64,000 nucleotides of DNA from Planctomycetota bacterium (GCA_024275565.1 JAJRYY010000127.1:124-64123), one strand, 5' to 3'; positions 4,865-63,158 are shown, counted from the stretch's first letter. Numbers and translations: made by a program. Notes: generated by a model not told the origin, from the letters alone.

Positions 4865-5839
4865 TCAGAGAGTCGTCGTATCGAAATCAGCCAGCCACTC
4901 CGGGGGACCGATCTCGTTCGGAACGCATAGGACGCGGCTGCGAAATTGCACGGATGATTCCGGCGTTGTAATCCCGGCGAAGTCGCCGCTGCCCGTGACC
5001 ACCCGCTTCGTGCGCAGGCGAATCATCTGGTAGTCAGCCTCGGAGAGAATCGAGAGAATCGATGCAGCATTGTCGCCCACGGTCATACCAGTCCAGGCGT
5101 GAAGCTCGAGCGCAATCATCGGTTTCAACGCCCGCAGCACGCCAGAACATCCCTGCAGAACCCCTTGCTCCGCACCCTCAACGTCGATCTTGATGAGATC
5201 GGGCTGAATATCATAGTGCGAAACGAGGTCATCCATCGCGATGGTGCTCTTGAACATGGGAATACTGCGAGCATTCCGTGGAGGCAGAACAGTGGACGAT
5301 TGTGGAGAAATATGGTCCCAGTGAAACGCGACGAGTCGCCCGGATGTTCGGTCCGCCAGGGCATTGACGATGTGGATACGCTCGGAAGCATCGTTCAAAC
5401 GCGCGTTTTCACGGATGACAAGACAGGACGCCTCCGATGGTTCGATGGCGTATAGATTCCCGGATGGATGCATGTCTGACAGCATCACCAGAGCGGACGC
5501 TCCAACGTTCGCACCTATGTCGAGAACGCAGTGTTTATCGGTCGCACAACGACGCAGGAACGCATAATCCGCCTGCTCCTGCTCACCGCGAGCTTCATAC
5601 GCAAGTCGAAACGTCATGCCAGCCAGCGGTACATCTCGATCCGCGAGCATCGCACGTTTAACCCCCCGCGCAGCCTCACGCCAGTAGGAAGTACGCGGTG
5701 CTTCGCGATCGAGCGTGACGGTACCTGTACCAGCTCCACCGCCTGTATCTGCTCCACCGCCTGTACCATCCTCGCCGCCTGTACCTGCTTCGCCATCCAT
5801 CCATACCGTGCCACAATCTGTCACTCTGACATCCTCCAT
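4865..5839 (-). CDS. FkbM-family SAM methyltransferase with Gly/Thr-rich N-terminal repeat
   Basis: VLDIGANVGAS and IKIDVEGAEQGVLQG motifs. The chosen ATG (5839..5837) overlaps the TGA of the upstream radical SAM gene as TGATG. Later starts (MLADRD, MTFRLAY) are possible. Confidence 0.75.
   Translation of the reverse strand: MEDVRVTDCGTVWMDGEAGTGGEDGTGGGADTGGGAGTGTVTLDREAPRTSYWREAARGVKRAMLADRDVPLAGMTFRLAYEARGEQEQADYAFLRRCATDKHCVLDIGANVGASALVMLSDMHPSGNLYAIEPSEASCLVIRENARLNDASERIHIVNALADRTSGRLVAFHWDHISPQSSTVLPPRNARSIPMFKSTIAMDDLVSHYDIQPDLIKIDVEGAEQGVLQGCSGVLRALKPMIALELHAWTGMTVGDNAASILSILSEADYQMIRLRTKRVVTGSGDFAGITTPESSVQFRSRVLCVPNEIGPPEWLADFDTTTL
5733..5786. repeat. 18-bp x3 in-frame tandem repeat (encodes GTGG(E/G)(D/A) units) in the FkbM N-terminus
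   Basis: Units gctccaccgcctgtatct / gctccaccgcctgtacca / tcctcgccgcctgtacct read directly. Confidence 0.9.
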
Positions 5840-7530
5840 CAAGACATGATGTGGGAGGTCGACACGTTGGTAGACCCCGCTTGACGCTGCCGCATGACGC
5901 GGGCGTTGCCCAGAAGTCCTTTGAGGACCCGAACGAATTTTCCACCAGACGACGTCGTGAACATCCCCTTCACGACTTCCAGAATACGCCCAGGCCGAGC
6001 GGCGAAGGACACCGCGAAAAAACTCGCAAAACTGAAGAGAATCATCATCCGCAGGAGCGTGTTCGGAACACGTCGATTCCAGCTTTTCTGCTGCCAGATG
6101 CTGAGGTATCCGAAGATCGAGTCGAGATATTCGTCCGATAATTCGATCGGCGTATCCGCGTGAATCTGACGGAAAAGCTCGGTATTCGGCAGTGGCGACA
6201 ACGCACAGATCGACACCTCCCTGAACCCAGTCACCGCGCATCGCAGCATCGTCAGATACGTCTGGAGCATCTGTTTCCACGTCTCACCAGGAAATCCGTA
6301 GATGAAAATGCACTGCACACGGATCCCCGCTTTGATGGCGTCGCGGGCTGATGCGAAAGCACTATCTATGTGGATCTTCTTCTTGATCCGCTTGAGCATC
6401 TCCGGCGATCCGGATTCAAACGCGTAGGAAAACTGCCGGCAGCCAGCCCCATACATCGCGCTGGCGACCTCCGTGTCGATGGCTTCGCTGCGCGTTCCAG
6501 ATGGAAGCTGCCACGAAACGTTCAAGTCACGCTTGATTATTTCGCGACAGAACTCGAGGATCCAGTCTTTGCGAACAACGGCGGTCAGGTCTTCAAAATG
6601 GAAATCGTTCGCGCCGTATTTGCGCATATAGAGTTCCATTTCGTCGATGACCTGATCGACGCTCCGCGGTCGCCACGACGTTCCCCACATTCCCGGCGAT
6701 CCGCAAAAGGTGCACTGGTACGGGCAGCCTCGGGTGGCGAGCATGGGCATGGATCTGCCGTCGGCGCTGCCGTGCGGCTGACGGTGCTCAATGTACTTTG
6801 ACACATCGAAATATCTCCATGCGGGCAATGGGATGTCGTCGATGTTTCGGATGCGCGAGCGACGCGGATTGGTGACGATCTGCCCTTCCGAACGGGCGAT
6901 CGTGCCGGGAATGTCCGTCACAACAGGAAGCGCAGTTTTTGCCGAAGCTTGCGTGTTGTCTGAAAGTGTACGTTTCTTCATCTGTGCGATTCTGTCGCAG
7001 AGTTCCAGCAGCGTTTCCTCCCCTTCGCCGGTGACGATGTAGTCGGTTGGGGATTGCTCGAAGACCAGGTCGGGTAGTGCGGTGGGGTGTTCACCCCCTA
7101 AGACGATCGGTGTGGCAGGAAAGCGAGACTTGATTTTGTTCACCAGATCGCGGAGTGGTGGCCAGGCGCATGAGAACATGATGCCCATGCCGATGAGGTC
7201 TGCTTCCGGGTCGATTCGATCGAGGATTTCGTCGAATGTCAGTCCCTGCATTGTTTTGTCGTTTTGTGTAAAAACCTGTCCGAGTCCTTCGCCGACGCCG
7301 TCGATGACCGATACCCGGTGTCCTGCCTGTTCGAGGGTGGCGGTCAGGTATGCGAGTCCGAGCGGTGGGATCGCGACGGATGATACGAGGTTTGCGGCGG
7401 AGACGCGTTGTGGCGGATGGATGAGCTGGACGCGCAGTTTTTGCGCAGTCTTGTCGCGTGTGAGGATTGCGTTGTGTGTGTGTCTGAGTTGTGTGTGTTT
7501 GAGTTGTGTGGTGCTGAGTTGTGTTAGCAT
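5839..7530 (-). CDS. B12-binding (class B) radical SAM enzyme
   Basis: CxxxCxxC cluster motif in ATRGCPYQCTFCGSP. N-terminal Rossmann-like cobalamin-domain pattern (RVQLIHPP...VSVIDG...IGMGIMFS). The N-terminus contains a TQL repeat. Confidence 0.85.
   Translation of the reverse strand: MLTQLSTTQLKHTQLRHTHNAILTRDKTAQKLRVQLIHPPQRVSAANLVSSVAIPPLGLAYLTATLEQAGHRVSVIDGVGEGLGQVFTQNDKTMQGLTFDEILDRIDPEADLIGMGIMFSCAWPPLRDLVNKIKSRFPATPIVLGGEHPTALPDLVFEQSPTDYIVTGEGEETLLELCDRIAQMKKRTLSDNTQASAKTALPVVTDIPGTIARSEGQIVTNPRRSRIRNIDDIPLPAWRYFDVSKYIEHRQPHGSADGRSMPMLATRGCPYQCTFCGSPGMWGTSWRPRSVDQVIDEMELYMRKYGANDFHFEDLTAVVRKDWILEFCREIIKRDLNVSWQLPSGTRSEAIDTEVASAMYGAGCRQFSYAFESGSPEMLKRIKKKIHIDSAFASARDAIKAGIRVQCIFIYGFPGETWKQMLQTYLTMLRCAVTGFREVSICALSPLPNTELFRQIHADTPIELSDEYLDSIFGYLSIWQQKSWNRRVPNTLLRMMILFSFASFFAVSFAARPGRILEVVKGMFTTSSGGKFVRVLKGLLGNARVMRQRQAGSTNVSTSHIMS
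7485..7529. repeat. 15-bp x3 tandem repeat at the 5' end of the radical SAM ORF
   Basis: Units tgagttgtgtgtgtt / tgagttgtgtggtgc / tgagttgtgttagca. Confidence 0.9.
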
Positions 7531-7544
7531 TTGAATCGCTCGAT

Positions 7545-7580
7545 GCTGGTTTGGGTCACTCGGCTGGTTCGGGTCACTCG
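7545..7580. repeat. 18-bp x2 tandem repeat in the divergent intergenic region
   Basis: gctggtttgggtcactcg / gctggttcgggtcactcg (17/18 identical). Confidence 0.9.
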
Positions 7581-7657: not shown

Positions 7658-9844
7658 ATGAGATGTCGTGGTTTCACAGAGGATTTGGGAGATTTACCGG
7701 ACTCAGGCATTCTGAGCGGGCGTGGGGTGAAGCGTCTGTTCCGTGACTGGTTTGGCGTGTCGTCTCTGATTTTGTGTCCTGTTGTGCTCATTGTGTATTT
7801 ATCGGTCTGGTTTGGGCTGGACTGGCGTGTGAGCGGTCGAGGCGTTCTGGGTCTTCTGCTGCTGGGTGTTGCGCCGGGATATGTCGTCTGGCGATTTGTA
7901 TTTGGTCTCCGGAGCATGGTGTCTCTGGAGAGTGTGATAGCGTGGCTGCTGCTTGGTACACTGATGACGCCACCCGTCTGGTTTGTGTGCAGCTGGGTTG
8001 GGCTTGCGTGGTTGTTCTGGGTGTTCTTTGGAGTATCGGTTCTGCTGCTGATCGTGTTTATCGTTCAGCAGTGGGTTTCGGTTTCGGCATTGTGTGCCAA
8101 TTTGTCTCCGGTTGTCGCGATCGTGATGTGGGCTGGCTGCGGGTTCGTCGTTCTCTGGAGTTTGTCGCTTTCCATTGTGGAGTTTCGTGACGGTGACGTT
8201 CATGTGATGCCCTATTCGGACCATGTTCTCCATGCCATGCTTGTGGGCGAGCTGAGTCGTGGTGTGCCCGCTCATACGATTCCGTTTATCGCTGGGGCTG
8301 ACAAGTGGGCGTACCATCAGATGCCGGATGTCTGGTGCGATTTGCTTCGTCGCGTATCCGGAGCCAGTACGAATGATGCTTATTTTTATCTTGCGTTGCC
8401 TCTTCGTTATTTTCTGATTTCTCTGGGATGTTTCCTTGCCATATGCGGTCGATTTGGACGTCTTTCCGGGTTGAGCAGTATGGTGTGTCTGCTTGCGTTT
8501 TCGGGGTTTTTCGGGATTCAGATGTTCGCGAACGGCTTGATGGTATACCTTTTTTTGAGCTATCCGACAGCTTTTGGGCTGATGGGTGTTTTTCTCATTC
8601 TGTACTGTTTATCCCTGTTGGGGAAGGATTCTGCTGGTCGCATATTTACGCTTGCGGTCGTCCTTGCGATGTCACTGCTCTGGTATAAGGCCAACTACGC
8701 CCTTGTCGTGGTGCCAGCAGTGACGACGGTTGCGGTTCTGATGCTTTATCCCCGTCGTGAGTGGGGTTGGCTGGGTGTTTGTGTTGGGGTGCTGGTGGTT
8801 ATCGGGGTTGTTCGGTTGTTTGACATCGCGTCGGCTGACATGGGGCCGGATCTGCTGATGCGTCCGGGGATGTTTCTGTCGTGGTGGTGGGAATTGAAGT
8901 TTGCACCGGACAGCGTATTCCGGATGTGGGTAGATGGTTGGCCGATCGTTTTGAAATGGCCGATCATGCTGCTGACGTGCGTTGTGTTCAGGTTTCATAC
9001 CGTGTTGTTTTCAATGTTGTATCTTGCATGGCGATTTCAATTTGGGCGGGGTGATCGCGCCTTGTGCTGGGTTGATCGAACATTGCTCCTGATGATCTTG
9101 TTTCTTATTGCCGGGCTGGTCGCGCTTCCGGTTCAGCGTGGTGCGATCTGGAATGTTTCCATGCACAATCTCTTTCTGGTATTGGCGCTTGGATTGTGTC
9201 TGATGGGACCTGTTGTGGTTGATATTGCGGGCTGGATGTTTCGCCGGCGTGGTTCGGCGGTTGTGATTGTGGCGTTATTCTGTGCTTCTGTGTTTGTGGA
9301 CAATGTGTTGGCTTTGCGTCGTACAGCGCTTTGGAGTACGCGTGTTGGAAGTGGTGTTGTCGGTAAGGACATGTATGCCTGCTACCGATTTATTCGAGAC
9401 ACTTCGCCCAGCGACGCGCTTGTGATGATACCGTCCTATCGCGAGGGGAGGTCTCCGGCTGGGTTGCTGACCGGGCGTCGACTGGTGCTTGAGAATGGTG
9501 AGGCGTGGAAAACTTTTTACGATACTGCTCCACTGCTGAGTGATCTTGATCGGTTTTATTCCGATGCCCAGTCGGATGAGCGGTCTTTGATTCTGGATAA
9601 GTATGCTGTTGATTATTTCGTGTCTGAGCATCCAATTCATATGCCAGATCGTGTGTCTCTGGTGTTCGAGCATGGTGGTGTCATGGTTTATCGCGTTGGT
9701 CCTTCAACTGGCAATGTGCAGGCTTTTGCGTCTCAGTCTGAGTTTTTCGAGTCTGAGTTTTTCGAATCTGTGTTGACTGAGGGGTCTGTGCTGATTGAGG
9801 GGAATGCTGCGCCATCCAATATTGCGAACAGGGATGGTGGTTAG
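7658..9844 (+). CDS. Large polytopic membrane protein, possibly GT-C-type glycosyltransferase (start uncertain)
   Basis: More than 12 predicted TM helices followed by a soluble C-terminal domain. It heads an operon with an ArnC-like GT2. The C-terminus has a duplicated SEFFE unit (15-bp x2 at 9737..9766). Function is by context only. Confidence 0.6.
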   Translation: MRCRGFTEDLGDLPDSGILSGRGVKRLFRDWFGVSSLILCPVVLIVYLSVWFGLDWRVSGRGVLGLLLLGVAPGYVVWRFVFGLRSMVSLESVIAWLLLGTLMTPPVWFVCSWVGLAWLFWVFFGVSVLLLIVFIVQQWVSVSALCANLSPVVAIVMWAGCGFVVLWSLSLSIVEFRDGDVHVMPYSDHVLHAMLVGELSRGVPAHTIPFIAGADKWAYHQMPDVWCDLLRRVSGASTNDAYFYLALPLRYFLISLGCFLAICGRFGRLSGLSSMVCLLAFSGFFGIQMFANGLMVYLFLSYPTAFGLMGVFLILYCLSLLGKDSAGRIFTLAVVLAMSLLWYKANYALVVVPAVTTVAVLMLYPRREWGWLGVCVGVLVVIGVVRLFDIASADMGPDLLMRPGMFLSWWWELKFAPDSVFRMWVDGWPIVLKWPIMLLTCVVFRFHTVLFSMLYLAWRFQFGRGDRALCWVDRTLLLMILFLIAGLVALPVQRGAIWNVSMHNLFLVLALGLCLMGPVVVDIAGWMFRRRGSAVVIVALFCASVFVDNVLALRRTALWSTRVGSGVVGKDMYACYRFIRDTSPSDALVMIPSYREGRSPAGLLTGRRLVLENGEAWKTFYDTAPLLSDLDRFYSDAQSDERSLILDKYAVDYFVSEHPIHMPDRVSLVFEHGGVMVYRVGPSTGNVQAFASQSEFFESEFFESVLTEGSVLIEGNAAPSNIANRDGG

Positions 9845-13752: not shown

Positions 13753-13768
13753 TGAACCGTTACACGTT

Positions 13769-13829
13769 GAAAGCACACGATGGAAGCACACGATGGAAGC
13801 ACGCGATGGAAGCACGCGATGGAAGCGAT
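13769..13829. repeat. 13-bp tandem repeat, about 4.7 copies
   Basis: Units gaaagcacacgat / ggaagcacacgat / ggaagcacgcgat / ggaagcacgcgat / ggaagcgat between convergent genes. Confidence 0.95.
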
Positions 13830-14506
13830 CAGCAGGCTGCAGACAGGCGGCGTAGCTGATCACGCTGGGTGGTAATGCTCATGCGTCGAACACCCTCTAG
13901 CAGGTCGTTGGGTATGGACTTATCTGCGATGCAGCTCACGCCATATCGGATTTTGCCCCGGTGCAGTTCGCGGACGCTTTGGATGCACACGGTTCCTGTA
14001 TACTCCACTCCATCGTGATTGAGGATTACCTCGACGATGCTTGCAACTTCATGTAGTTTGTTGGATGAGACGGCAAAACCAGTATTGCTGATGTCGAGAA
14101 TCGCGCAATCGCGCTCCTCACCAAAAATTGCGGTTAGCTCGGACATGACGGTCGAAACGCGATAGCACTCCCGGTTTTCCGCCGAAACCACGTCGCCCAG
14201 CGTTTCAAAAGTAAAGGTTCCTGGTGTTTCGGGCGACTCCTCCTGAAGAGCAGACTCCTCCTGAGGAGCATCTGTCACGCGTGCTGCCTGCTTCACAAAA
14301 TCGCGCTTCTGGTTGTAGAAAACGAGAATCTCCTGCTCTGCTTCAACCTCGATATCTGTTTCTTCGAATTCGGCGGTGTATAGACCGTCGCTTACACCGA
14401 CGACTTTGGCAGGGTGGAGGATGCGGCGATCAGACTCGCCCGAAATTTGAAGGAAGAATTCTTTGTCAACACCAAGCATAGCCTCAGCTCCTCTAACATG
14501 GGTCAT
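13829..14506 (-). CDS. PilZ-domain (c-di-GMP binding) protein with N-terminal PilZN-like barrel
   Basis: RxxxR (RECYR) lies 21 aa upstream of DxSxxG (DISNTG). GGAGGA Shine-Dalgarno before the ATG. Confidence 0.75.
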   Translation of the reverse strand: MTHVRGAEAMLGVDKEFFLQISGESDRRILHPAKVVGVSDGLYTAEFEETDIEVEAEQEILVFYNQKRDFVKQAARVTDAPQEESALQEESPETPGTFTFETLGDVVSAENRECYRVSTVMSELTAIFGEERDCAILDISNTGFAVSSNKLHEVASIVEVILNHDGVEYTGTVCIQSVRELHRGKIRYGVSCIADKSIPNDLLEGVRRMSITTQRDQLRRLSAAC

Positions 14507-14829
14507 CTGCGGTCCTCCCCAGGACCACCACTGTGCTTCATCGGCACTCGAAACATGGGAATGAAGCAGAGAGTGGCCCAGGGTGCCGGGGCGACAGTGT
14601 CCACGCAGGACACATCAATTACACGTTAGGTCAGGCAGAATGTGAATGGATATCGCGCAGTCAAGTCCGATAAAACCAGACTCAAACCTTGTCACTCATA
14701 ATCAGACCTTGCCCAGCAACCGGACAAATTCGCTCGCAAATTGTCGAATGGATTCGGATTGCGTCATATAAATGAGCAGGCTGAGGATGTACAGTGCTAA
14801 CCATATTCGGTTGTGTGTGCGCGGAAGTG

Positions 14830-16947: not shown

Positions 16948-18959
16948 GATACCGTCTCCACAGCTTCGACAGCTACCACAGCTTCCTCAGTTTCCAGCTT
17001 TAATTTCCCGGTGAAACCAGATTGGCTTGATCCCGACGCCAGGCCGCCCGTTGCAGGGATGTGTCGTCGCAACCACAGCTCCAGCATCAGCATCGCCCAG
17101 AGGCGCGCACCCAGTCGACTCCCTTTCGATGCTACAAACGTCCGCCAGCATCGTCCCACCGCATCCGCTCCAAGCCACTCATAAATCCGTGCGTCGGGAG
17201 AAAGCAGAATATCCTGCACCATCTCCCGCAGCGGTCCACGAAACCATTCGTCCATGGGTGCTTCAAAGCCCTTTTTACGCCCAGATGACACTTGCTCGCC
17301 AAGCTGACTACGAATCGCTTCCCGCAGGATATACTTGCCCCGCCCACCGCGAATCTTCAAGGATGCAGGCAGGACCGCCATGGACTGTACCCAGTGTGTG
17401 TCAAGCAGTGGCACGCGTACCTCAAGACCATGCGCCATCGATGCCCGGTCCACTTTGCACAAGACCCCATCCGCCAGCCACGTCTTCATGTCCACATATT
17501 GACCCCGTCCCAGCGGATTCTGTGCATCACATGCCGCGAAATGCTGACGCAACACGTTGTAAGGATCATGATCCCCGAGACGCTCGACTGTCTCAGGGCG
17601 AAGCAGTGAAACCGTGTCCCAGGGGTGATACCACGCCATCCCCAGATAGTGTGCGAAATCATCATCAGCGGACAGGCCATCCAGTGCAGCAGACAACCGC
17701 TTCAGCCCACTACTCCACGGTTGCGACGCTCCACCCAGTTCTCTCAATCTCCGCAATCCATCAATGCGACCGAATCGCTGCAACACGTTCGTGACACTTC
17801 TCTGCCGATGTCGACGGATGTACCGGGTGTATCCCCCGAATAATTCGTCACCCCCATCCCCAGACAACACCGTTTTAACCATCCCCGATGCAAGACCACT
17901 CACCGCGTGTGTCGCGATGGACGACGGATCTGCAAACGGCTCATCAAATACCTCCGAAATCGTCTCGACCACATGCGTCGCTTCCGGGCGAACCATGCAC
18001 GCGTGATGGTGAACGCCAAGACGGTCAGCCAAAGCGCCCGCTTCAATCCGTTCGTCAAATTCCGGATCATCAAATCCAGCAGTAAACGAATCAAAACCCG
18101 CCCCATGGACCTGCACCATATTCCAGACGATTGCGCCTGAATCCAGTCCGCCGCTTAGAAATGCACCCACAGGAACGTCCGATACAAGGTGTGTCCGCAC
18201 CGTTTCGGAAAGACCATCGCGAATCCGCCTGCACCACGCCTCCTCGGAACGCTGCGATTCTTCAGCAAACGATACATCCCAGTAGGTCGTTCGTGACGTA
18301 CCCTCCGCCGATATCACAACACGCTCCCCCGGCGACAATTGACAGACATCCCGCAAGATTGTCCGTGGCGATGGCACATAGTGATACGTCAGATATTCAT
18401 GCAGGGCAGCCTCATCCACCCGTCGTGGAATCTCACGATGCTCGATCACAGCATCAAGCCGCGATGCGAAAACCACCCCTTCAGTTGCACAGGATCCGAG
18501 ACCGATTGACCCAAAATACAACGGCTTAACGCCAATCGCATCACGCACCAGAAGGAGACGCCGCCGCCGATTGTCCCATAAGGCGAACGCGAACATCCCA
18601 CGCAGCTTTTCCACGAAACAGTCGCCATACGCCTCATATAGATGCACGAGCACTTCCGCATCACTTCCAGTCTGAAATCGATGCCCGCCAGCCTCCAGCT
18701 CCTCACGCAGCACGCGATGGTTGTAGATTTCGCAGTTGGCTGTCACCCATATCGATCCATCTTCATTGCCAATAGGCTGATGCCCACCCGCCGGATCGAT
18801 GATTGCAAGTCGCCGATGCCCAAGTACTGCGATACCGTCGTCATGCACACCCTCACCGTCGGGACCGCGATGCGACACCCGCACCAAACCACGCGAAGCA
18901 GCCAGCCGATCCTCGTCCTGCAAACCGCCGAAGCGTACTACGCCAGCGATGCCGCACAT
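16944..18959 (-). CDS. asnB: Asparagine synthase (glutamine-hydrolysing) family amidotransferase, glycan-locus paralogue
   Basis: N-terminal MCGIAG nucleophile motif; the start is placed so Cys is residue 2. SGGLDS PP-loop motif. Confidence 0.9.
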   Translation of the reverse strand: MCGIAGVVRFGGLQDEDRLAASRGLVRVSHRGPDGEGVHDDGIAVLGHRRLAIIDPAGGHQPIGNEDGSIWVTANCEIYNHRVLREELEAGGHRFQTGSDAEVLVHLYEAYGDCFVEKLRGMFAFALWDNRRRRLLLVRDAIGVKPLYFGSIGLGSCATEGVVFASRLDAVIEHREIPRRVDEAALHEYLTYHYVPSPRTILRDVCQLSPGERVVISAEGTSRTTYWDVSFAEESQRSEEAWCRRIRDGLSETVRTHLVSDVPVGAFLSGGLDSGAIVWNMVQVHGAGFDSFTAGFDDPEFDERIEAGALADRLGVHHHACMVRPEATHVVETISEVFDEPFADPSSIATHAVSGLASGMVKTVLSGDGGDELFGGYTRYIRRHRQRSVTNVLQRFGRIDGLRRLRELGGASQPWSSGLKRLSAALDGLSADDDFAHYLGMAWYHPWDTVSLLRPETVERLGDHDPYNVLRQHFAACDAQNPLGRGQYVDMKTWLADGVLCKVDRASMAHGLEVRVPLLDTHWVQSMAVLPASLKIRGGRGKYILREAIRSQLGEQVSSGRKKGFEAPMDEWFRGPLREMVQDILLSPDARIYEWLGADAVGRCWRTFVASKGSRLGARLWAMLMLELWLRRHIPATGGLASGSSQSGFTGKLKLETEEAVVAVEAVETVS

Positions 18960-38142: not shown

Positions 38143-38169
38143 AGGCGGTGGAGCTGTATAGAGCCTGTG

Positions 38170-45971: not shown

Positions 45972-46254
45972 CGCACATTCCTTTCAATGACGAATAGCTG
46001 ATGCCCCGTACTTACTACCCCAAATGCACCATTTCGTCAAGAACCCGCGCGACAGAATCAACCCTGAACCCCTGCATCAGCAGAAAATGCAATCTGACAG
46101 ATTGCCCTCCCCCTTCCTCAACCATCAGGAAGTCAACAGGCGATGCTCAGCCACAGGAAATCGCGATCCACACAGATCAATCTGCCAGCGCGTCCCATCT
46201 CAGGTGCAATACTCAAACCCACCAGCAGGTCAAAAACAAGCATCCTCCACAGAA

Positions 46255-46323
46255 CAACCACGGCAACCGCAGGAGAGCAACCACGGCAACTACAGGAGAG
46301 CAACCACGGCAACTACAGGCTGG
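46255..46323. repeat. 23-bp x3 tandem repeat
   Basis: Units caaccacggcaaccgcaggagag / caaccacggcaactacaggagag / caaccacggcaactacaggctgg. Confidence 0.95.
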
Positions 46324-46364
46324 CACTGAGCTTATAAAAAACGTACAAATTCCTAACAAAAGTC

Positions 46365-46393
46365 TTGACTAACACAGAGGTATGGTGTATAGT
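46365..46393 (+). promoter_or_regulatory. Near-consensus sigma-70-type promoter candidate (TTGACT-17-TATAGT)
   Basis: -35 at 46365..46370, a 17-nt spacer and -10 at 46388..46393, upstream of the hldE-like gene. Its relevance to this organism's housekeeping sigma is assumed. Confidence 0.45.
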
Positions 46394-46528
46394 GTATTGT
46401 AGTAGAGAGTGGCAGGACAGCTTATGGGGGGGAGTAGCATGACAGGGGGCAGAAAACGGTCTGCGACGGCAGCCATGACCGGGCGAACGATCATCTCGAG
46501 CGGCAGCATTCCCTGCTTCCGCGACGTT

Positions 46529-46588
46529 AATTCTGAAGGCACAACCGTTTCGGGGCAGAATTCTGAAAGCATGACCGTTTCGGTGCAG
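46529..46588. repeat. 30-bp x2 tandem repeat
   Basis: aattctgaaggcacaaccgtttcggggcag / aattctgaaagcatgaccgtttcggtgcag. Confidence 0.95.
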
Positions 46589-46635
46589 CCATCACGCAAA
46601 ATCTGCCGATATGGCGGCGTTGGGTTCGTGATGTT

Positions 46636-46698
46636 GATAGTTCCCTTCGTAATGTCGATAGTTCCCTTCGTGTTGTTGATGGGTTCCTATGGTGATGG
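46636..46698. repeat. 21-bp x3 tandem repeat (would encode a hydrophobic segment if translated)
   Basis: Units gatagttcccttcgtaatgtc / gatagttcccttcgtgttgtt / gatgggttcctatggtgatgg. Confidence 0.9.
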
Positions 46699-46708
46699 CG
46701 GATTGAAA

Positions 46709-48301: not shown

Positions 48302-48424
48302 GGTTGTGGTGCATTTCTGCCATGCGGACCATGACACAACACCAGTCACTGTTGCTGGCGCTTGCCCTATCCCCGTGAATCTGCGACGCTCTCTCCGAAT
48401 GACGGACCTACGGAGCAGCAAACC

Positions 48425-49276
48425 ATGAGCGACGATACGCAAAAACTCGTGCAGGCGATTCTGGATTCGCCATCCTATCTATTGGCAGAGGAAGACAACG
48501 CGTTTCTCAGGCGCGAGGAGCTTCGGGGGAATCGGCTTGCACTGGAGTTACTCAAGCCGGAGATTATACAGCAGGAACTCAACATCAATTCGACGATCGT
48601 GATGTTTGGCGGTAGTCGCATTCTGGAGGAATCCAAGGCTGAGCAGCGTGTCAAGGATACGGAGCAGCAGTTGCGTGCTGATCCTGACAATGCGGATTTG
48701 TTGCGAAGCGTTCGCATTGCAAAGAGTCAGCTCGCCAAATCCAAATATTACGATGCTGCACGGGAGCTTGGTCGGATCGTCTCATCGACGTGTCAGATCG
48801 GTGGGAAATGCGAATTTGTCGTTGTGACGGGCGGTGGACCGGGGATCATGGAGGCTGCCAATCGCGGTGCGTATGACGCTGATTGTAAGTCGGTTGGTAT
48901 GAACATCACGCTGCCCTTCGAGCAGTCGCCGAACCCATATATTTCGCCGGAATTGTGCTTCAATTTCCGCTATTTTGCGGTGCGTAAGATGCATTTTCTG
49001 ATGCGGGCGCGGGCGTTGGTTGCGTTTCCCGGCGGGTTCGGGACGCTGGATGAGTTGTTTGAGGCGTTGACGCTCGTGCAGACGGGCAAGACCGATCGGA
49101 TTCCGATCATCCTGTTCGGGCGGGCGTTCTGGGATGCGTTGATCAACTGGCCTATGTTCGTCGAGGAGGGCGTTATCAGTCCGGAGGATATGGACCTTAT
49201 TTTCTACGCTGAGACTGCAGCAGAGGCATGGGAGATCATCGTGCGGGAAAATCCGGGTCGCGTGACGGTGCCGTGA
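48425..49276 (+). CDS. LOG-family (TIGR00730-type) nucleotide 5'-monophosphate nucleosidase-like protein
   Basis: GGGPGIMEAANRGA and PGGFGTLDELFEALTLVQT motifs. Confidence 0.85.
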   Translation: MSDDTQKLVQAILDSPSYLLAEEDNAFLRREELRGNRLALELLKPEIIQQELNINSTIVMFGGSRILEESKAEQRVKDTEQQLRADPDNADLLRSVRIAKSQLAKSKYYDAARELGRIVSSTCQIGGKCEFVVVTGGGPGIMEAANRGAYDADCKSVGMNITLPFEQSPNPYISPELCFNFRYFAVRKMHFLMRARALVAFPGGFGTLDELFEALTLVQTGKTDRIPIILFGRAFWDALINWPMFVEEGVISPEDMDLIFYAETAAEAWEIIVRENPGRVTVP

Positions 49277-49585: not shown

Positions 49586-49615
49586 TCCACGGCCTACACC
49601 CCCGAATCCCACGGC

Positions 49616-49627
<12 letters not shown>
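49586..49627. repeat. 21-bp x2 tandem duplication spanning the glyQS stop codon
   Basis: tccacggcctacacccccgaa / tcccacggcctacactccgag. The second copy encodes ...LGV-stop on the minus strand. Confidence 0.9.
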
Positions 49628-51184
<1,557 letters not shown>

Positions 51185-51863
51185 CGAAGCACCTGTCGCG
51201 TTTAGTTTCCTGTCGCGCCTAAATATATGTGAATACTGTGGTTACCTGTTATCGGACTCATTCGAACCTGCAATGATCTCGTTGCCTGGGGCATTTTTAC
51301 CACAATCCGCCCGGAACGCCAAAAAGTGCGCACCCACATCGCAACATGGTTGTAAGTTGAGTCAACATAATGGGTTATGGCGTTTCATGGGTTCGAGGTG
51401 GTATAACGCCGTTGCTTTTTCGCAACACATGCTGGGTTCCGGTCACTGATTTGCGTTGCGACGACTGATAATCTCAGCCCGTGCTGGGGTTTCGCTTCGG
51501 TTTCATCTATTCGGACCGCACGCGCAAAATTGGCACACCCTTTGCCTTATGGTTTCAGCGAGTGGGTCTCAGGGCTGGATAATCAGGGTGATCATTCTGG
51601 GGGGAAGAATCATGTGGCAATATCGAATCTACACGTTTTTCCGTCGTAAACTGAAAATCACGTTCTACACATTTCTTTGCTACGCTTCGCTCTGTTGATC
51701 TCTTCCGCGGGTCAGTTTGCTGAGTGGAATGGGACTTTAGGGGAACCGATCCCGGGCCGATAATAATGTCTGCTCTGGTGGTTCCCTGGGATGCATGCAG
51801 CCTCCCCCGCTGTATGCAGTGATCCTGATTTCCTGACAGCATGGAGTGAGATTGATAGTGGGT

Positions 51864-53297
51864 ATGACAATTGACCTGTCGGCGTTGCAAGTTGACGTGT
51901 CGGCGATGCAAGTTGGTCAAACGCCGTCTGCTGCACCCATTTCGCGCTTGTTGTTCCTCAATAACCCTGGTCGGATGAGTCGGTATTTTCTCGAAGGTCT
52001 GATCGCTGCGGCGGATGGTCTGGGCATCGAGTATCGTGTGTGTGAGCTTGGTGCGGTCTGGTCGAGGCGGGCGAGCGACATGGCAGGGGTCACGCGCGAG
52101 ATGGCTGAGATGGTCCGTCGTGAGCGGATCACTGCAGTGCTCGGGTATACGATGAATGGTGCGGCGGATTTTGAATGCCGTTGTCGCAGCGATGGTACGC
52201 CTATGAGTTTGTTTGAGGCGCTTGGCGTGAAGCACCTGATGTTCTGGTCGGACCATCCACAGTGGGCATCGAACAAGACCGCACTGCTTCCCGATCTGCA
52301 ACCGCTCCTGCGTTCCGCCAACAATTACCATTTTCTCAAGTGCGAATCGGCTGCAAGGGAGATCGATCGCGTGCTGGGCTGGCTGAATTGTCATGGTCTG
52401 CCCGTTGGCGAGGATCCCAAGATGGTGCGTCCTCAACCGCACATCGAGGCGGAATTCGACCTTGTGTCGATCGTTGGGACGTCGCCACAGCTCGAACCGT
52501 GGATATTGCCCTTTCTGGATCAGAAAAATCCAGATATCGACGCCATCAACGGGATTGTGGCGGGTCTGGTTCGGGAGGGATTGTCGGATGTCTGGCTGCG
52601 TGACGTTCCGGAACCGATGCTGGCGTCGCTCGTGAAGATGGGGGACGACTGGGTTGAGCGGCGACGTGTTGATGGTCGCACTGCTTCCTTTCGGCATTTG
52701 GAGGCCTTGACGCGAGATCACGGTGATGCAGTGCAGTGGTTGCTTGGTCATCCGCAGACCTATTTTGATGCGGTCGATCAGTTGTGGTTGTTTGGTCGGT
52801 GGCAGCGGCCGTTTTATCTTTCCTTTCTCCCGAAGTATTTTCGTGTGGCGGTCTTTGGTTCTGACTGGTCTTCTGCGGGTTGTGCTGGTGGTGACTGGGT
52901 CGATCACCATCATCAGGCAGAAGCCTACGCCCGTGGACAGGTGGCGTTCAGCGTGTCGCAGGCCACCGATGAGGAGGGAATCGCGCACAAGCCGTTCGAG
53001 ATGGCAGCCAGCGGTGTGCCCTTTGTACATAATCATGCCAGGGGATTGTCCGACTACTTCACGCTTGGCAGTGAGGTTGGGGTCTTCGATACGCCGTCGG
53101 ATGCCTGCGACCTTATCTCCGATCTGATCCGCGACCCGGCGCGACGGGCGGAAATGGGTAGAGCAGCGAGAGCGCGTTTTGAGCAGGATCACACCTGGGC
53201 GAATCGACTGGAGCGCATGCTGATGGCGGCTGGTCTGCCGGTGGCGACGTTTCGAGCTTCGTCCACGCCCGTGGTTCGATCCCCCGTCCACGCGTAG
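51864..53297 (+). CDS. CgeB-like / DUF3880-type glycosyltransferase (GT-B C-terminal half)
   Basis: C-terminal HKPFEMAASGVPFV...DPARRAEMGRAARARFEQDHTWANRLERML resembles the Glyco_trans_1_2 / CgeB family. The 5' end contains a 21-bp x2 duplication (51878..51919). Confidence 0.55.
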   Translation: MTIDLSALQVDVSAMQVGQTPSAAPISRLLFLNNPGRMSRYFLEGLIAAADGLGIEYRVCELGAVWSRRASDMAGVTREMAEMVRRERITAVLGYTMNGAADFECRCRSDGTPMSLFEALGVKHLMFWSDHPQWASNKTALLPDLQPLLRSANNYHFLKCESAAREIDRVLGWLNCHGLPVGEDPKMVRPQPHIEAEFDLVSIVGTSPQLEPWILPFLDQKNPDIDAINGIVAGLVREGLSDVWLRDVPEPMLASLVKMGDDWVERRRVDGRTASFRHLEALTRDHGDAVQWLLGHPQTYFDAVDQLWLFGRWQRPFYLSFLPKYFRVAVFGSDWSSAGCAGGDWVDHHHQAEAYARGQVAFSVSQATDEEGIAHKPFEMAASGVPFVHNHARGLSDYFTLGSEVGVFDTPSDACDLISDLIRDPARRAEMGRAARARFEQDHTWANRLERMLMAAGLPVATFRASSTPVVRSPVHA

Positions 53298-55730: not shown

Positions 55731-55761
55731 GAACTCCTGTAGGCTTGCAGGGGTTGAGCGT

Positions 55762-55801
55762 TGTGAAAAGAGGGCGAATCGATCCTGTGACCGATTCGCC
55801 C
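55762..55801 (-). terminator. Intrinsic terminator downstream of the yjfB-like gene
   Basis: 10-bp perfect stem gggcgaatcg/cgattcgccc (55772-55781 / 55792-55801) with a 10-nt loop. TCTTTTC follows on the minus strand; GTCTGTTTTC on the plus strand makes it potentially bidirectional. Confidence 0.65.
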
Positions 55802-55899
55802 GTCTGTTTTCAATATGTATTTATTGTTCGTATGATATCGATCTGGCGTAACCTCGTTCATCGTGCGGTAAGGATCCATGTGTTGGATCCTGAAACAGC

Positions 55900-56127
55900 T
55901 TACGCGTGTACGTCGAGGTGGCCATCTGCTCCGACGGAATCCTGAGCCTGTTGCCCCTGTTTTCCGCTATGGGACGTCGTTTCGGAGGCGGATTGCAGCA
56001 ATGCCACGGCAGCCTGCCCTTCCGCTTTCTGGGCGTTCTGAGCAAGGTTCAATCCTGCAATGCTCGCATCCTGCCGCACCTGTGCTGCGGCCATACCTGC
56101 ATTTCCACCTACTTGTCCTACAGACAT
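55900..56127 (-). CDS. YjfB-like 'putative motility protein' family small protein
   Basis: 75 aa, Q/A/S-rich, with a C-terminal ...GxxLDVxA signature. AAGGAG Shine-Dalgarno 8 nt before the ATG. Confidence 0.55.
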   Translation of the reverse strand: MSVGQVGGNAGMAAAQVRQDASIAGLNLAQNAQKAEGQAAVALLQSASETTSHSGKQGQQAQDSVGADGHLDVHA

Positions 56128-56341
56128 CGGCGTGACTCCTTCTTTCGGTTACAATACGCGGTTCCGGCAGGTGCGATCACCTATCACCAGCGGGTTCATC
56201 GGTCCATGGAACGCGTGGCGTTGGTTCGATCCATGTGGCGATAAGATCGCTCGCAGCTTCGTCGAAAATGCTGGTGTTATGGGTCCGGGGGTGTCTGTGA
56301 CAACTATTTACATGGATTGAGTTTACAATGGGCCTTCGGTC

Positions 56342-56413
56342 GGCGGGTTGAATACGAATGGCCGGGTTGACATACGCATTGCCGGATTGAATACGGACGC
56401 AATCCGTTGACGC
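56342..56413. repeat. ~20-bp direct repeats x3.5 upstream of the M16 peptidase gene
   Basis: Units ggcgggttgaatacgaat / ggccgggttgacatacgcatt / gccggattgaatacggacgc / aatccgttgacgc (core CGG-R-TTGA-M-(A)TACG). Confidence 0.85.
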
Positions 56414-56509
56414 TGGTGACTGCTTGATTTATGAGTGCGTGTGGTGATCCGCAGTCGCACGGAGATTACGCTTGCGGCGCGATACAACTTCAGATGAGGA
56501 GCTATTTCG

Positions 56510-59680: not shown

Positions 59681-59839
59681 TTCGAGCCGATTGGGTGTTC
59701 TGCATTGAGTGCCCATCGCCTGTGATGAACGGGTGTTGTTCGCGAATCAGTCCGTAGTGGTTGTTTTGGCCGATGTCGGTGATCATCTGCGGGTTGGTGG
59801 TCATCCGCGAGGGGTGCGCCGAGCGGTCGACCTCTCTGT

Positions 59840-60655
59840 CTACCCTCTCTTCTCAAGCGAATCCGCCAGGACTTGGGAGAGGTCGCGGAACGTTTTGATG
59901 TCTCCGAAGACAACTGAGGACGGGGCAAGTTGAGTCGGCCAGAGCGTGGATATTTGAGACGCTGCGACGATCAGGGCGCCAAAGCTGATCAGCAAGAACG
60001 CCAGAATACCGAGACACATTTCAATTTCCGACGCCATCCACATCATTTCCACGAGTCCGGTGATGAATCCTCCCAGTCCTGCTATCGCCAGTCCGATCAG
60101 AATACATCGCAAACTCGAATCATAGCGCGGTTCGCTCACCGTGACGTGAGGGATGGCATTGGGCGATAGGGGCGAAATTGACCCCACAAAAATGTGACCA
60201 TACTCAACCGTATAATCCGCAATTTCGGTCGAGGGTGTCACATCTGAAATGTCCGCACCCGCCTCTTTAAACAATGATCGAATGGTCATGAATGCCCCGG
60301 CAGCCATGCACTCACGCCCAAGTATCCGTGCGGGCTGAATGCTGGGTATCATTGCTGATTTTGCCAATAGTTCACAGACCCCACGCAGCGTTCTCTTTTT
60401 GGCTGGCTGTAATACGGACCGCCATGCAGCATCGCCCTCGCAAACCTTCCACTCTTCATTCAGTGCTCGTCCCAGAGGTTTCCAGCTGACGAGATCGCAG
60501 ATATCCTGCCACTCAGCGATGGTTGTCTCGAAGCCAAGCTCATCGACCGAATCCTGCTCCGGAATATAATTTTCCGAATGACGAAAGTTGTCACGAAATA
60601 TCGCAAGAACATCGTCAGCAGAGGCTTTGACGCGTTTGACTGTACCGACTTCCAT
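59840..60655 (-). CDS. Hypothetical protein with two C-terminal TM helices
   Basis: ORF lies 14 nt downstream of the DnaJ-TPR gene. No motif recognised. Confidence 0.55.
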   Translation of the reverse strand: MEVGTVKRVKASADDVLAIFRDNFRHSENYIPEQDSVDELGFETTIAEWQDICDLVSWKPLGRALNEEWKVCEGDAAWRSVLQPAKKRTLRGVCELLAKSAMIPSIQPARILGRECMAAGAFMTIRSLFKEAGADISDVTPSTEIADYTVEYGHIFVGSISPLSPNAIPHVTVSEPRYDSSLRCILIGLAIAGLGGFITGLVEMMWMASEIEMCLGILAFLLISFGALIVAASQISTLWPTQLAPSSVVFGDIKTFRDLSQVLADSLEKRG

Positions 60656-60669: not shown

Positions 60670-63075
60670 TTATTCAACCCCATCCGTCCCAGCCATCGCC
60701 TGTTCGATGGCAGACTCTGCTCGCTCAAGCATCTTCGTGGCTCGCTCCAGCATCTTCGCAGCGGCGACATCCCCCGAATCCAGCGCCACTGCCCGACGGA
60801 ACGCGTCCATCGCATCATCTATCCGCTCAAGACTCATCAGTACCGCACCCCGCAACCGATGACCAGCCCCGTCAGCCGAATCCAATTTCAACCCCCGGTC
60901 AACGGCTGACAACGCATCATCAAACCGTTTCGCCAGCAGACAACATCGCCCCACAGCACGATGGACGGTTGCACGGTTCGGATCAACCCGTACCACCACC
61001 TCAAACGCAGCCAGCGACTCATCCAGCCGACCCTCGCGTCCGAGACTCAACCCAAGCTGGAAGTGCGCATCCACCAGATTCTCATCCAGTCGGACAGCCT
61101 CAGTCAGCGGGTCAATGGCGGCGGCGTGATCTCCCTGTCCCGCCAGACAGCACCCCAGATTCAACCATCCTTTGGCATGGTCTGGGGCCAGTGAAACCGC
61201 CTCCCGGAATGCTTTGACTGCGCCCGCAATATCCCCGAGTTCGAACCGCGCCGCACCCAGGAGTCGATACACCACATCGTCCGGATGGTCGACCGCAGCA
61301 GCTTCAAAACTCCTGGACGCTTCCTCGAATCGACCCAGCTTTGCGAGGCATAACCCGCGATCGTACACTGCTGCTGCTGGAGCATCCTTGAGCGATAACG
61401 CTCTGTCCAGAGCTTCGATGGCTGACTCATACTGACCCGACAACATCCGGGTTTGCCCCAGTCGCAACAGCCCGACCTCGTCATCGGGAGAAATCCGAAC
61501 CGCCTCACCAAATGCGGAAAGCGCCTCCTCCACCAGTCCAAGCACGCCGCAGCACATTCCGAGATTCACATACGTCGCAGCCTGGGTCCCATCCAGCGAC
61601 ACGGCCCGTCGGAACGACTCCGCAGCAGCCTCCGTCTGCTCCATCGCCATGTACACACAGCCAAGCAAACGATGGCCGGCAGCGTCATCGGGCTTCAACC
61701 GAACCGCCTCCTCCATCGCAGCGACCGCCTCACTGCCCCGCCCCAACCGCCACATCGCAAGACCGAGATTCAAATGTGCAGGACCATGTTGACCATCGAG
61801 ATGGATCGCACGTCGAAACGGATCAATCGCATCCTCGTTCCGATCGAGATGAGAAAACGATAACCCAAGATTCACATGAGCGGTCACATGGAACGGTGCC
61901 AACCGAATCGTCTGCTGAAAGGCTTCGATCGCTTCTTCATGTCGATCCAGTCGTCCCAGGCAGACCCCAAGATTGAATTGAGCCGTCGCATGACCGGAAT
62001 CCTTGGATACAGCCTTACCAAACGCCGCAGCAGCCTCCGAAAATCGTTCGGAACGCAAATGCGTCACGCCTGTAGCGAACAGTTTCGCCGCCGCCCCGGA
62101 TGCCCCATTCGACGACCGGGCAGCTCGCGGAACAGCTCGACCATTCCCCGAAACGGTGTGCCCATAACAGGACATCCACTGTTGACGAAAGCGGTCAGCC
62201 ACCGGTCGCTCAAACGTTAAAAACGCCCTGCACCGATCGCATCTCGCCTCAACACGCGGAATCTCATGACGAAGACGTTGCGGCATGTTGCATTGAAAAC
62301 AGATAACACGGTCGTCCGGCTGAGCTACCATCCCCCCGCCCAACGCCAGTCCATATAAGGTGTTGCCTCCAGATGCGTTCGAAGCCATCAGGCGATCGTA
62401 TGCGTCCCGTATCAGCACAAAACGCTCCTGAGCCAAATCCTTCAACGCAGGGTCAGCAAGAGAATGCCGATCAGGATGATACGTTCGCACCAGCGATCGA
62501 AATGCACCACGGATTTCAGCCCTGGACGCTCCACGCCCAACCTTGAGCAGCGATCGAGACGATTCCAACGACAGACCGTCCGCTGCGGATCGAATATACG
62601 GCGATGAGCTGGCGGCAATATCTGCTTCCGTCATGCCCATGTCTGACCCGACACGCTTGACCGTTTCAAGCGCGAGGTCAGCCGAACGACCGGAATCAAG
62701 AAGGTATCGCCAACCCAGTGAAATCAGCCATCTACGTAAATCGTGACTGCATCGGGCGGCATCAAACAGCGTGACCAACCCCTCGTCATACGCCAAAGCC
62801 TTGCTGCGAAAAGTGTCATAGGAGAAGGACGCACTCAAACTGTGGGAGGGAACTTCCAGCTCCGACCAGATTGCGTCCAGCAGACCCGCCGCACGAAGCC
62901 CCGATCCGTTCTTCATGCCACATTCAATACGCGTCAAATGCGAGAGGAAACAACCTGCGTAGAAAAACTGAGACAGCTTGCGCGTCACGTCTCGTGATGG
63001 TCCACCACTGACAGCGACCCCTATATCATCAGTCGTTGCTGAGGTAGCTTCCAGAATTTTGCGAAACCAGGACAT
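60670..63075 (-). CDS. J-domain (DnaJ-like) protein with zinc-ribbon and long TPR array
   Basis: J-domain with the HPD motif (FRSLVRTYHPDRH), CFQCN...CDRCR, and at least 12 TPR-like repeats (A..F..A..L.P....A...LG). Confidence 0.8.
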   Translation of the reverse strand: MSWFRKILEATSATTDDIGVAVSGGPSRDVTRKLSQFFYAGCFLSHLTRIECGMKNGSGLRAAGLLDAIWSELEVPSHSLSASFSYDTFRSKALAYDEGLVTLFDAARCSHDLRRWLISLGWRYLLDSGRSADLALETVKRVGSDMGMTEADIAASSSPYIRSAADGLSLESSRSLLKVGRGASRAEIRGAFRSLVRTYHPDRHSLADPALKDLAQERFVLIRDAYDRLMASNASGGNTLYGLALGGGMVAQPDDRVICFQCNMPQRLRHEIPRVEARCDRCRAFLTFERPVADRFRQQWMSCYGHTVSGNGRAVPRAARSSNGASGAAAKLFATGVTHLRSERFSEAAAAFGKAVSKDSGHATAQFNLGVCLGRLDRHEEAIEAFQQTIRLAPFHVTAHVNLGLSFSHLDRNEDAIDPFRRAIHLDGQHGPAHLNLGLAMWRLGRGSEAVAAMEEAVRLKPDDAAGHRLLGCVYMAMEQTEAAAESFRRAVSLDGTQAATYVNLGMCCGVLGLVEEALSAFGEAVRISPDDEVGLLRLGQTRMLSGQYESAIEALDRALSLKDAPAAAVYDRGLCLAKLGRFEEASRSFEAAAVDHPDDVVYRLLGAARFELGDIAGAVKAFREAVSLAPDHAKGWLNLGCCLAGQGDHAAAIDPLTEAVRLDENLVDAHFQLGLSLGREGRLDESLAAFEVVVRVDPNRATVHRAVGRCCLLAKRFDDALSAVDRGLKLDSADGAGHRLRGAVLMSLERIDDAMDAFRRAVALDSGDVAAAKMLERATKMLERAESAIEQAMAGTDGVE

Positions 63076-63122
63076 GATCCTCGTATACTATCTTACTTCA
63101 AAAAGTATGGCTATACATAACA

Positions 63123-63158
63123 AATTGCAGCATGGCATGAAATTGCAGCATGGCATAG
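63123..63158. repeat. 18-bp x2 tandem repeat
   Basis: aaattgcagcatggcatg / aaattgcagcatggcata. Confidence 0.95.

Follow-up and report, generated by a model that had tools for sequence, protein, structure and literature searches.

We examined the short tandem arrays, segments repeated head to tail a few times, in a 64-kb stretch of DNA from a Planctomycetota bacterium (GCA_024275565.1, JAJRYY010000127.1:124-64123; hereafter the window). The arrays are of local origin, whole units of them continue to be gained and lost among related environmental strains, and those that are retained have passed a filter of reading frame and location. Probably they arise as side products of local mutation that is unusually active in this lineage of Phycisphaerae, with selection filtering the outcome.

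Tandem Repeats Finder (TRF) was run on the full length of the window, and overlapping rows with a score of at least 50 and a period of at least 9 were merged into arrays. This gave 25 separate arrays (0.39 per kb), with periods of 9-42 nt, 1.9-5.0 copies and 69-100% matches; 50 dinucleotide-preserving shuffles of the window gave a mean of 0.24 arrays and a maximum of 2. When the score threshold was lowered to 30, TRF returned 54 rows over the whole window and 42 arrays; shuffles averaged 7.1 arrays at that threshold. Lenient TRF settings covered 15% of spacer sequence, versus 2.3% in shuffles. This coverage was dropped as a measure for comparing genomes, because the whole-locus value for the window (0.078) did not separate it from other genomes (0.034-0.087).

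An earlier note, made by reading the sequence directly, had listed 20 of these repeats. TRF found 17 of them at the same positions or a few bases away; the other three (22911-22952, 41222-41257 and 49586-49627), each with two copies of about 18-21 bp, are weaker but evident when the sequence is read directly. Arrays that the list lacked were found by TRF at 14235, 16957, 22522, 29981, 31837-31970, 38799, 60719 and 63537-63643. The note's claim of more than 20 independent arrays with unrelated units was borne out, as an all-against-all comparison found 3 array pairs with a common word of at least 10 nt, versus 2.3 for random segments of the window. The units are thus unrelated between loci, and the arrays are independent local duplications. 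The further claim that most longer spacers carry an array was roughly right: 10 of the 23 spacers of at least 60 nt have one at a score of at least 40, and about 14 of 23 do if weaker repeats found by direct reading are counted. The arrays, the weaker repeats and the single-copy sites that are duplicated in related strains are as follows.

5724-5789: 18 bp, 3.7 copies; Gly-rich stretch (GEAGTGGEDGTGGGADTGGGAGTG) encoded on the minus strand, upstream of an FkbM methyltransferase domain (TRF, translation and Pfam).
7467-7534: 15 bp, 3.3 copies (TGTGTGTGTCTGAGT); minus strand, over codons 1-22, start codon included, of a B12-binding radical SAM gene.
7545-7580: 18 bp, 2 copies; divergent intergenic spacer (TRF).
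9735-9802: adjacent arrays of 15 bp (2.7 copies) and 18 bp (2 copies); they encode SEFFE SEFFE and SVLTEG SVLIEG in the C-terminal tail of a hypothetical protein of 728 aa.
13762-13826: 13 bp, 5 copies, 94% matches; convergent spacer; the sole array with an exact 10-mer present at least 4 times.
14235-14270: 18 bp, 2 copies, in frame; N-terminal to a PilZ domain (PQEESA LQEESP).
14618-14628: ATTACACGAT, single copy in the window.
16957-16996: 9 bp, 4.4 copies; EAVVAVEAVE in the C-terminal tail of asparagine synthase (minus strand).
22522-22557: 18 bp, 2 copies, in frame; N-terminal region of a GT4 glycosyltransferase.
22911-22952: weak, about 21 bp, 2 copies; spacer, under the TRF threshold (direct reading).
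29128-29224, plus strand: 18 bp, 4.8 copies, and an overlapping 18 bp, 2 copies; QGSMGS-type hexapeptides in the MutL linker between DNA_mis_repair and MutL_C.
29334-29342, plus strand: GTCAGATGC, single copy in the window; MutL linker.
29981-30037: 18 bp, 3.1 copies, 69% matches; spacer between MutL and a PQQ/BamB-like gene.
31364-31411: 16 bp, 3 copies; precedes the likely start of a secreted Cys-rich protein.
31837-31970, plus strand: 21 bp, two overlapping arrays of 3.4 copies each; KAGxxCP-type heptapeptides in the Cys/Lys-rich protein.
33276-33377: compound, about five units of 20-22 bp each ending in TCAGA; spacer after the gene for an extracytoplasmic function (ECF) sigma factor (TRF scores 33308-33352).
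34304-34343: 20 bp, 2 copies; from the stop codon of a gene for a 316-aa hypothetical protein.
34422-34472: 17 bp, 3 copies; 597-nt spacer upstream of an AcrB-family gene.
38799-38846, plus strand: 21 bp, 2.3 copies, in frame; HlyD-family protein (AEADAEVAEAD).
41222-41257: weak, about 18 bp, 2 copies; convergent OEP/GuaA spacer, over the GuaA stop codon (direct reading).
45853-45908, minus strand: 21 bp, 2-2.3 copies; in the 42-aa N-terminal extension of IMPDH, with no alternative start codon downstream.
46251-46319: 23 bp, 3 copies, 93% matches; divergent spacer between IMPDH and an HldE-like gene.
46529-46588: 30 bp, 2 copies; upstream of the conserved HldE-like start (46709).
46625-46680: 21 bp, 2.7 copies; upstream of the conserved HldE-like start.
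48420-48437, plus strand: single copy in the window; covers the ATG of a LOG-family gene.
49586-49627: weak, about 21 bp, 2 copies with one indel; convergent spacer, where the gene for a class II aminoacyl-tRNA synthetase stops (direct reading).
51871-51915: 21 bp, 2.1 copies; 5' end of the longest open reading frame (ORF) of a glycosyltransferase, the true start of which may be downstream, at 51978.
56344-56395: 20 bp, 2.7 copies; 779-nt spacer upstream of an M16 peptidase gene.
59778-59813: degenerate 18 bp, 2 copies (13/18 identical); under the TRF threshold.
59831-59856: degenerate 13 bp, 2 copies; under the TRF threshold.
60719-60758, minus strand: 21 bp, 1.9 copies (AKMLERA TKMLERA); C-terminal tail of a TPR-DnaJ protein.
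63122-63156: 18 bp, 1.9 copies, 100% identical by TRF; spacer.
63537-63643, minus strand: 21 or 42 bp, 4.7 or 2.6 copies; heptads (LSEQEVR LSEQKGE LSEREVK and so on) in a 276-aa coiled-coil-like protein.

Gene models were corrected where evidence allowed before density by location was calculated. MutL was taken to start at 27967 (canonical MASIQQLPDILVKKIAAGEVIERP), the LOG-family gene at 48425, and the HldE-like gene at 46709, because alignments with its homologues begin only at residue 101 of its longest ORF. In mutL (27568-27966), the HldE-like gene (46409-46708) and a hypothetical gene, hyp401 (31348-31566), the longest ORFs begin 73-133 codons ahead of the conserved or plausible starts. 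For annotation this is a warning that longest-ORF calls would give false N-terminal extensions, some of them repeat-bearing.

With these models, array density fell from 1.46 per kb in spacers to 0.44 per kb within 240 nt of an ORF end and 0.16 per kb in ORF cores (chi-square p = 3.6e-6), in agreement with the clustering at gene boundaries that had been proposed. The arrays occupy divergent, tandem and convergent spacers alike and lie next to housekeeping and accessory genes. Within supported ORFs the period was divisible by 3 in 18 of 18 cases, for which the chance is (1/3)^18, or about 3e-9, and in 21 of 21 if the longest ORFs are used; outside ORFs it was so in 3 of 10. The rule that units in genes are multiples of 3 was therefore without exception in supported ORFs. 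These arrays encode short peptide repeats at sites tolerant of them, as in the MutL linker, the N-terminal extension of IMPDH and the first codons of the radical SAM enzyme. Further sites are the C-terminal tails of AsnB, the 728-aa hypothetical protein and the TPR-DnaJ protein, and the coiled-coil-like protein with heptads. The same trend was present at a lower level in 160 loci from relatives (0.19 per kb outside ORFs and 0.062 per kb inside, with 74% of the in-ORF periods divisible by 3).

To see the arrays in other strains, we used six indexed runs, which contain 5-15% of the window's sampled 31-mers; four are labelled hydrothermal-vent metagenome, and no RNA run is among them. The strain contigs are short unitigs of 2-11x depth, with patchy coverage of the window and a few percent of mismatches to it. 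Length differences of at least 9 bp between the strains and the window numbered 11, and all 11, each checked in the sequence, are gains or losses of tandem units (X1, X2, X3 and X5 denote runs):

7485: -15 in X2; one unit of the 15-bp array, with the window's count in X5.
9750-9784: -33 in X3; across the 15-bp and 18-bp arrays.
14625 (insertions 14625-14628): about +10 in X2; reads as a new tandem copy of ATTACACGAT.
16987: +9 (CAGCTTCCA) in X2; one more unit of the 9-bp array.
29333: +9 in X2, in frame; duplicates 29334-29342 (GTCAGATGC) in the MutL linker.
31363-31396: -32 in X5; two 16-bp units.
48419: +18 (AAACCATGAGCGACGATA) in X2, in frame; duplicates 48420-48437, including the LOG start codon.
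56358: -20 in X1; one unit of the 20-bp array, with the window's count in X5.
59783: -18 in X2; degenerate pair, single copy there.
59831: -13 in X2; degenerate pair, single copy there.
63141: -18 in X2; near-perfect two-copy array, single copy there.

Copy-number polymorphism had been suggested as a check of the repeats, and in the metagenome contigs every difference of this size proved to be such an event. Three of them (14625, 29333 and 48419) are new duplications at sites that are single-copy in the window, and at 7485 and 56358 different runs have different alleles. As whole-unit differences and new duplications are found among strains that diverge from the window by a few percent, the view that the arrays are evolutionarily recent stands. 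Indels of 1-2 bp over the same stretches numbered about 13, so that unit-sized events are about equally common. In bacterial pseudogenes, by comparison, whole tandem-repeat units were lost in only 2 of 396 deletions (PMC6054270). Smaller, in-frame differences of 3 bp were also seen inside arrays in X2, at 45874 (a deletion with both IMPDH copies kept) and at 60736-60739, while copy number was unchanged at 7545 (X3), 46529 (X2), 20215 and 56344 (X5). The shorter alleles are not caused by cycles in the de Bruijn graph, since none of the arrays with a unit difference contains a near-identical periodic run as long as k + period (k = 31). Joints in GuaA, the tRNA synthetase, AsnB and AcrB were set aside as partial matches from other organisms, because their matching sides are only 21-38 nt long and most of them, inside conserved genes, leave out a length not divisible by 3 (107 nt in AsnB and 86 nt in AcrB).

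Two of the variable sites touch start codons. The environmental LOG-family allele has two in-frame ATGs 18 nt apart, owing to the duplication of 48420-48437, and the radical SAM gene starts inside its 15-bp array (7467-7534).

By protein similarity, the window comes from a member of the Phycisphaerae (Planctomycetota) that has no close representative in the collections searched. The assignment follows from the best matches of GuaA and IMPDH, which are to Phycisphaerae metagenome-assembled genomes (MAGs) at about 75% identity (for GuaA against GTDB representatives, the best was 75%). The best identity of the HldE-like protein, against Joint Genome Institute (JGI) metagenome contigs, was 64%, and no recorded entry matched any of three window proteins exactly.

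We compared array density in the window, in related loci and in reference replicons with identical TRF settings. The three thirds of the window have 0.33, 0.42 and 0.42 arrays per kb. Among relatives, density was 0.077 per kb in 80 GuaA-centred loci from GTDB representatives (1.28 Mb) and 0.094 per kb in 80 HldE-centred metagenome loci (1.0 Mb); the window exceeds its relatives about 5-fold. For 115 related Planctomycetota loci of at least 10 kb the median was 0.062, the 95th percentile 0.279 and the maximum 0.52 per kb. Stretches of 50 kb from reference replicons had 0.02 (E. coli K-12), 0.04 (S. meliloti pSymB), 0.12 (Ralstonia megaplasmid), 0.12 (Nostoc pCC7120alpha) and 0.02 (Deinococcus MP1) arrays per kb. 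At 3-20 times these five replicons and above the 95th percentile of the related loci, the window fits the earlier description of a density well above that of a typical bacterial chromosome.

The window is elevated but not unique, as three other Planctomycetota loci (L065, L145 and L139) reach 0.42-0.52 per kb. The densest, L065, belongs to Phycisphaerales MAG SJ659 (JADZBE010000039.1, 1-21074) and has 11 arrays in 21 kb, with periods of 14-41 and 1.9-5.2 copies. It is a distant relative of the window (GuaA 66% identical) with a window-like density, and repeat richness may have evolved repeatedly within the phylum. A propensity of the proposed kind would thus be lineage-specific only in a relative sense.

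Our favoured explanation involves birth, change and selection. Segments of about 9-40 bp would be duplicated head to tail. Whole units would then be gained or lost through strand misalignment in replication or through unequal exchange; the change itself is seen between strains. Loops of one unit would be too long for mismatch repair to remove. Judging from the distribution of the arrays, selection would then act as a filter, with spacers tolerating any unit length and translated sequence keeping in-frame units only. In proteins, units would survive mainly in the tails at either terminus, in linkers between domains, and in segments that are coiled-coil or of low complexity. The density and frame pattern is what one expects if, as had been suggested, selection tolerates arrays only outside protein cores, in spacers, termini and linkers and as in-frame units. 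Longer spacers and peptide repeats at protein ends would be side effects, and the arrays would need no function of their own.

Several points weigh against this explanation. A genome-wide propensity is extrapolated from 64 kb, although the three thirds are alike; the evidence from strains consists of short unitigs of low depth that are patchy over the window; and gain cannot be told from loss for any single change, as there is no outgroup. Individual arrays may have a function, for example in promoter spacing or start-codon context (7467-7534 and 48420-48437). Finally, the two-copy arrays and the two cleanly resolved new duplications lack flanking microhomology, which classical slippage between short direct repeats predicts.

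The last point was assessed through R, the number of extra periodic bases beyond two copies, in arrays of fewer than 2.45 copies; classical slippage predicts R of at least 3. In 12 well-resolved two-copy arrays R was about 0, indistinguishable from simulated duplications without microhomology, and in 56 two-copy arrays from relatives it centred on 0-2. The two cleanly resolved new duplications (+18 at 48419 and +9 at 29333) had R = 0 and no flanking microhomology. The birth step may therefore use a route other than classical slippage: synthesis might be primed on minimal homology, or staggered breaks might be filled in and joined. Of the earlier proposal of a propensity for slippage or template-switch duplication, the high local propensity for duplication is upheld, while simple slippage is called into question.

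We give some tentative weight to birth by break repair, in which nicks in opposite strands would produce a staggered break, and fill-in of the overhangs followed by joining would leave an exact duplication. This would account for the birth step only, with later changes made by misalignment, and is compatible with the favoured explanation. Besides the R values, it has a precedent in eukaryotes, where small tandem duplications made by fill-in synthesis at break ends are reported (PMC8355091). However, no Ku, LigD or comparable protein is present among the Pfam-annotated genes of the window, and slippage remains feasible, because 0-2 nt of homology can be enough for a polymerase to re-prime. The R values themselves come from a small sample in which the edges of older arrays have mutated and the limit of 2.45 copies caps the R that can be seen. 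A more far-reaching reading, which we consider doubtful, is that some distinctive feature of replication or repair in this lineage, shared by a few further Planctomycetota such as the one behind L065, generates blunt tandem duplications of about 9-40 bp with no microhomology, at a rate like that of 1-2-bp indels. If so, new spacer DNA and extensions at protein N- and C-termini would come mainly from tandem duplication in these genomes.

A defect in MutL was considered as a cause, since the earlier note had speculated about a link between mutL and the array that it carries; no support for it was found. The start of the N-terminal ATPase is intact, as are the endonuclease motifs DQHALHERILFE (DQHAxxExxxxE) and CPHGRP, and mismatch repair, which is inefficient on loops of more than about 3 nt (PMC4060949), is not expected to police loops of 9-40 nt. 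From its motifs MutL looks intact, and its array is just another in-frame repeat, situated in a disordered linker. That linker has undergone a further 9-bp duplication in an environmental strain.

It is improbable that the arrays in general are kept for function, whether unit number were to tune promoter spacing, the context of the 5' untranslated region and start codon, or linker length, or the arrays were to bind regulators. Although several overlap start codons or fall within divergent promoters (7467-7580, 45853-46680 and 48420-48437), convergent 3'-3' spacers are equally occupied (13762, 41222 and 49586), also beside GuaA, IMPDH and the aminoacyl-tRNA synthetase, and the unrelated units offer no common binding motif. 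The window includes a cluster of surface-polysaccharide genes, where phase variation is classically found, and copy numbers do differ between strains, but units in ORFs are all multiples of 3, which leaves no room for on/off switching by frameshift. Moreover, copies have decayed to 69-90% identity, as expected without selection on their sequence. No homologous arrays were seen in relatives, and HldE-like homologues begin at residue 101, the array-bearing region before it not being conserved.

Assembly or sequencing errors, whether from the assembler or from long reads, are a very remote explanation, and the artefact that the earlier note had named as a possible refutation is itself essentially refuted. 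The evidence here comes from other runs, each with at most 15% of the window's sampled words, and not from the window's own reads; nevertheless, unitigs from at least four runs reproduce the copy numbers at 7545, 46529, 56344 and 20215, and at other arrays they differ by whole units. The in-frame rule and the bias to gene boundaries are biological signatures that would not result from artefacts, and the copies are diverged rather than identical. A dispersed repeat family (repetitive extragenic palindromes or bacterial interspersed mosaic elements (REP/BIME), miniature inverted-repeat transposable elements (MITE) or CRISPR-like repeats) or chance in skewed composition can be dismissed, because, although some units have words of 9-11 nt in common (the arrays at 16957 and 22522, for instance, both contain CACAGCTTCC), word sharing is at the random level and shuffles give almost no arrays, there are no spacers between copies, and neither cas genes among the Pfam-annotated genes nor an Rfam match was found; the all-against-all comparison of units likewise ruled out a shared motif or mobile family.

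Pfam annotation of the window revealed a polysaccharide and methyltransferase gene cluster, MutL, the ECF sigma factor, a resistance-nodulation-division (RND) efflux operon, GuaA, IMPDH, the HldE-like bifunctional enzyme, the LOG-family protein, the class II aminoacyl-tRNA synthetase, the M16 peptidase, a cold-shock protein and the TPR-DnaJ protein. Scans of the window gave no tRNA and no Rfam family, and hence none under the arrays. The efflux operon (34903-41151, plus strand) is arranged as AcrB-family transporter, HlyD-family membrane-fusion protein (MFP) and OEP outer-membrane factor. This RND-MFP-OEP order is uncommon, the usual arrangement being MFP-RND. At 31567-32553 (plus strand) lies a gene for a probable secreted protein with a signal-peptide-like MSFWNPFWRRISMRNALFALTIAAFALAPAFVSA and Cys/Lys-rich KAGxxCP heptapeptide repeats; it has no Pfam match and, from its composition, could be a metal-binding or surface protein.

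Spacers of 560-1200 nt without a supported gene or Rfam match lie at 26753-27966, 55731-56509, 51185-51845, 34306-34902 and 22723-23286. Some of them also lack a strong tandem array, and tandem repeats thus account for only about 15% of spacer DNA. Contigs of X1 and X5, both of them vent metagenome runs, join 22880 directly to about 27824 with 24-33 unrelated letters between, which indicates related strains that lack, or have replaced, this 4.9-kb segment just upstream of mutL. The segment contains two hypothetical genes, a methyltransferase-like gene of 540 aa and a 1.2-kb stretch without a supported gene.

How do the arrays compare with known repeat systems? Contingency loci have units of 1-9 nt, and changes in them shift the reading frame or the -10/-35 spacing. 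The arrays of the window resemble them in being hypermutable, in occurring close to gene starts and in varying in length within populations, but have units of 9-42 nt, lie in all spacer types and are always in frame inside ORFs, all periods there being multiples of 3. Unlike CRISPR repeats, the copies abut, and neither cas domains among the Pfam matches nor an Rfam CRISPR family was found; REP/BIME and MITE are likewise at odds with unrelated units and no Rfam match. Iterons and other binding-site arrays repeat a binding motif beside a replication origin or a regulated promoter and are conserved in relatives. The arrays here have no motif in common, they also lie in convergent spacers, and the region upstream of the HldE-like start that contains three of them is not conserved in homologous loci, though single arrays may still bind proteins. 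The duplications made by break fill-in in eukaryotes are similarly exact, small and of like size, and the window's cases also have no flanking microhomology; that pathway, however, uses eukaryotic proteins, Pol alpha-primase among them (PMC8355091).

A further comparison is with the satellites of prokaryotes. Subirana and Messeguer (2019) described prokaryotes that have many unrelated, scattered tandem repeats and a high capacity to form them; the repeats are multiples of 3 where coding (PMC6749651). They defined satellites as at least 4 repeats with an exact decamer within 800 nt and a unit of 10-200 nt, and counted up to 89 per Mb in Methanosarcina and about 22-23 per Mb in Methanobrevibacter and Burkholderia, the highest bacterial values being about 22-23; Rhodopirellula baltica, the only planctomycete in their table, had 4.06 per Mb (PMC6749651). 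The window shares with these genomes the scattered, unrelated repeats and the multiples of 3 in coding sequence. Its arrays, however, mostly have 2-3 copies, and only 13762-13826 passes a rough re-implementation of the definition (not SATFIND itself), which as a single count would correspond to about 16 per Mb.

The closest likeness is to variable-number tandem repeat (VNTR) or minisatellite loci, which serve for multiple-locus VNTR analysis (MLVA) typing in Mycobacterium, Yersinia, Bacillus and Burkholderia. As in those loci, units of about 9-40 bp are arranged head to tail in few copies, differ in number between close strains, are enriched in spacers and are in frame in genes. The 25 arrays consist of abutting units (period 9-42) that are unrelated between loci, and whole-unit differences between strains were found at 7467, 9735, 16957, 31364, 56344 and 63122, as well as at the sub-threshold pairs 59778 and 59831. 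The window differs from the known examples in its density (0.39 per kb versus 0.02-0.12 per kb in the five replicons), in its mostly 2-3 copies, and in its host, a free-living member of the Phycisphaerae and no pathogen. The excess consists mostly of young arrays of 2-3 copies. If this density holds genome-wide, the host would be among the most tandem-repeat-rich bacteria described, and would offer a natural system for the birth of duplications without microhomology, the growth of spacers and the N- and C-terminal extensions that planctomycete proteins often have. The arrays can be used as strain-typing markers for the vent-associated population. The window is thus a VNTR- or minisatellite-rich region from a poorly sampled lineage, a striking and extreme case of a known bacterial phenomenon rather than a new genetic element or system.

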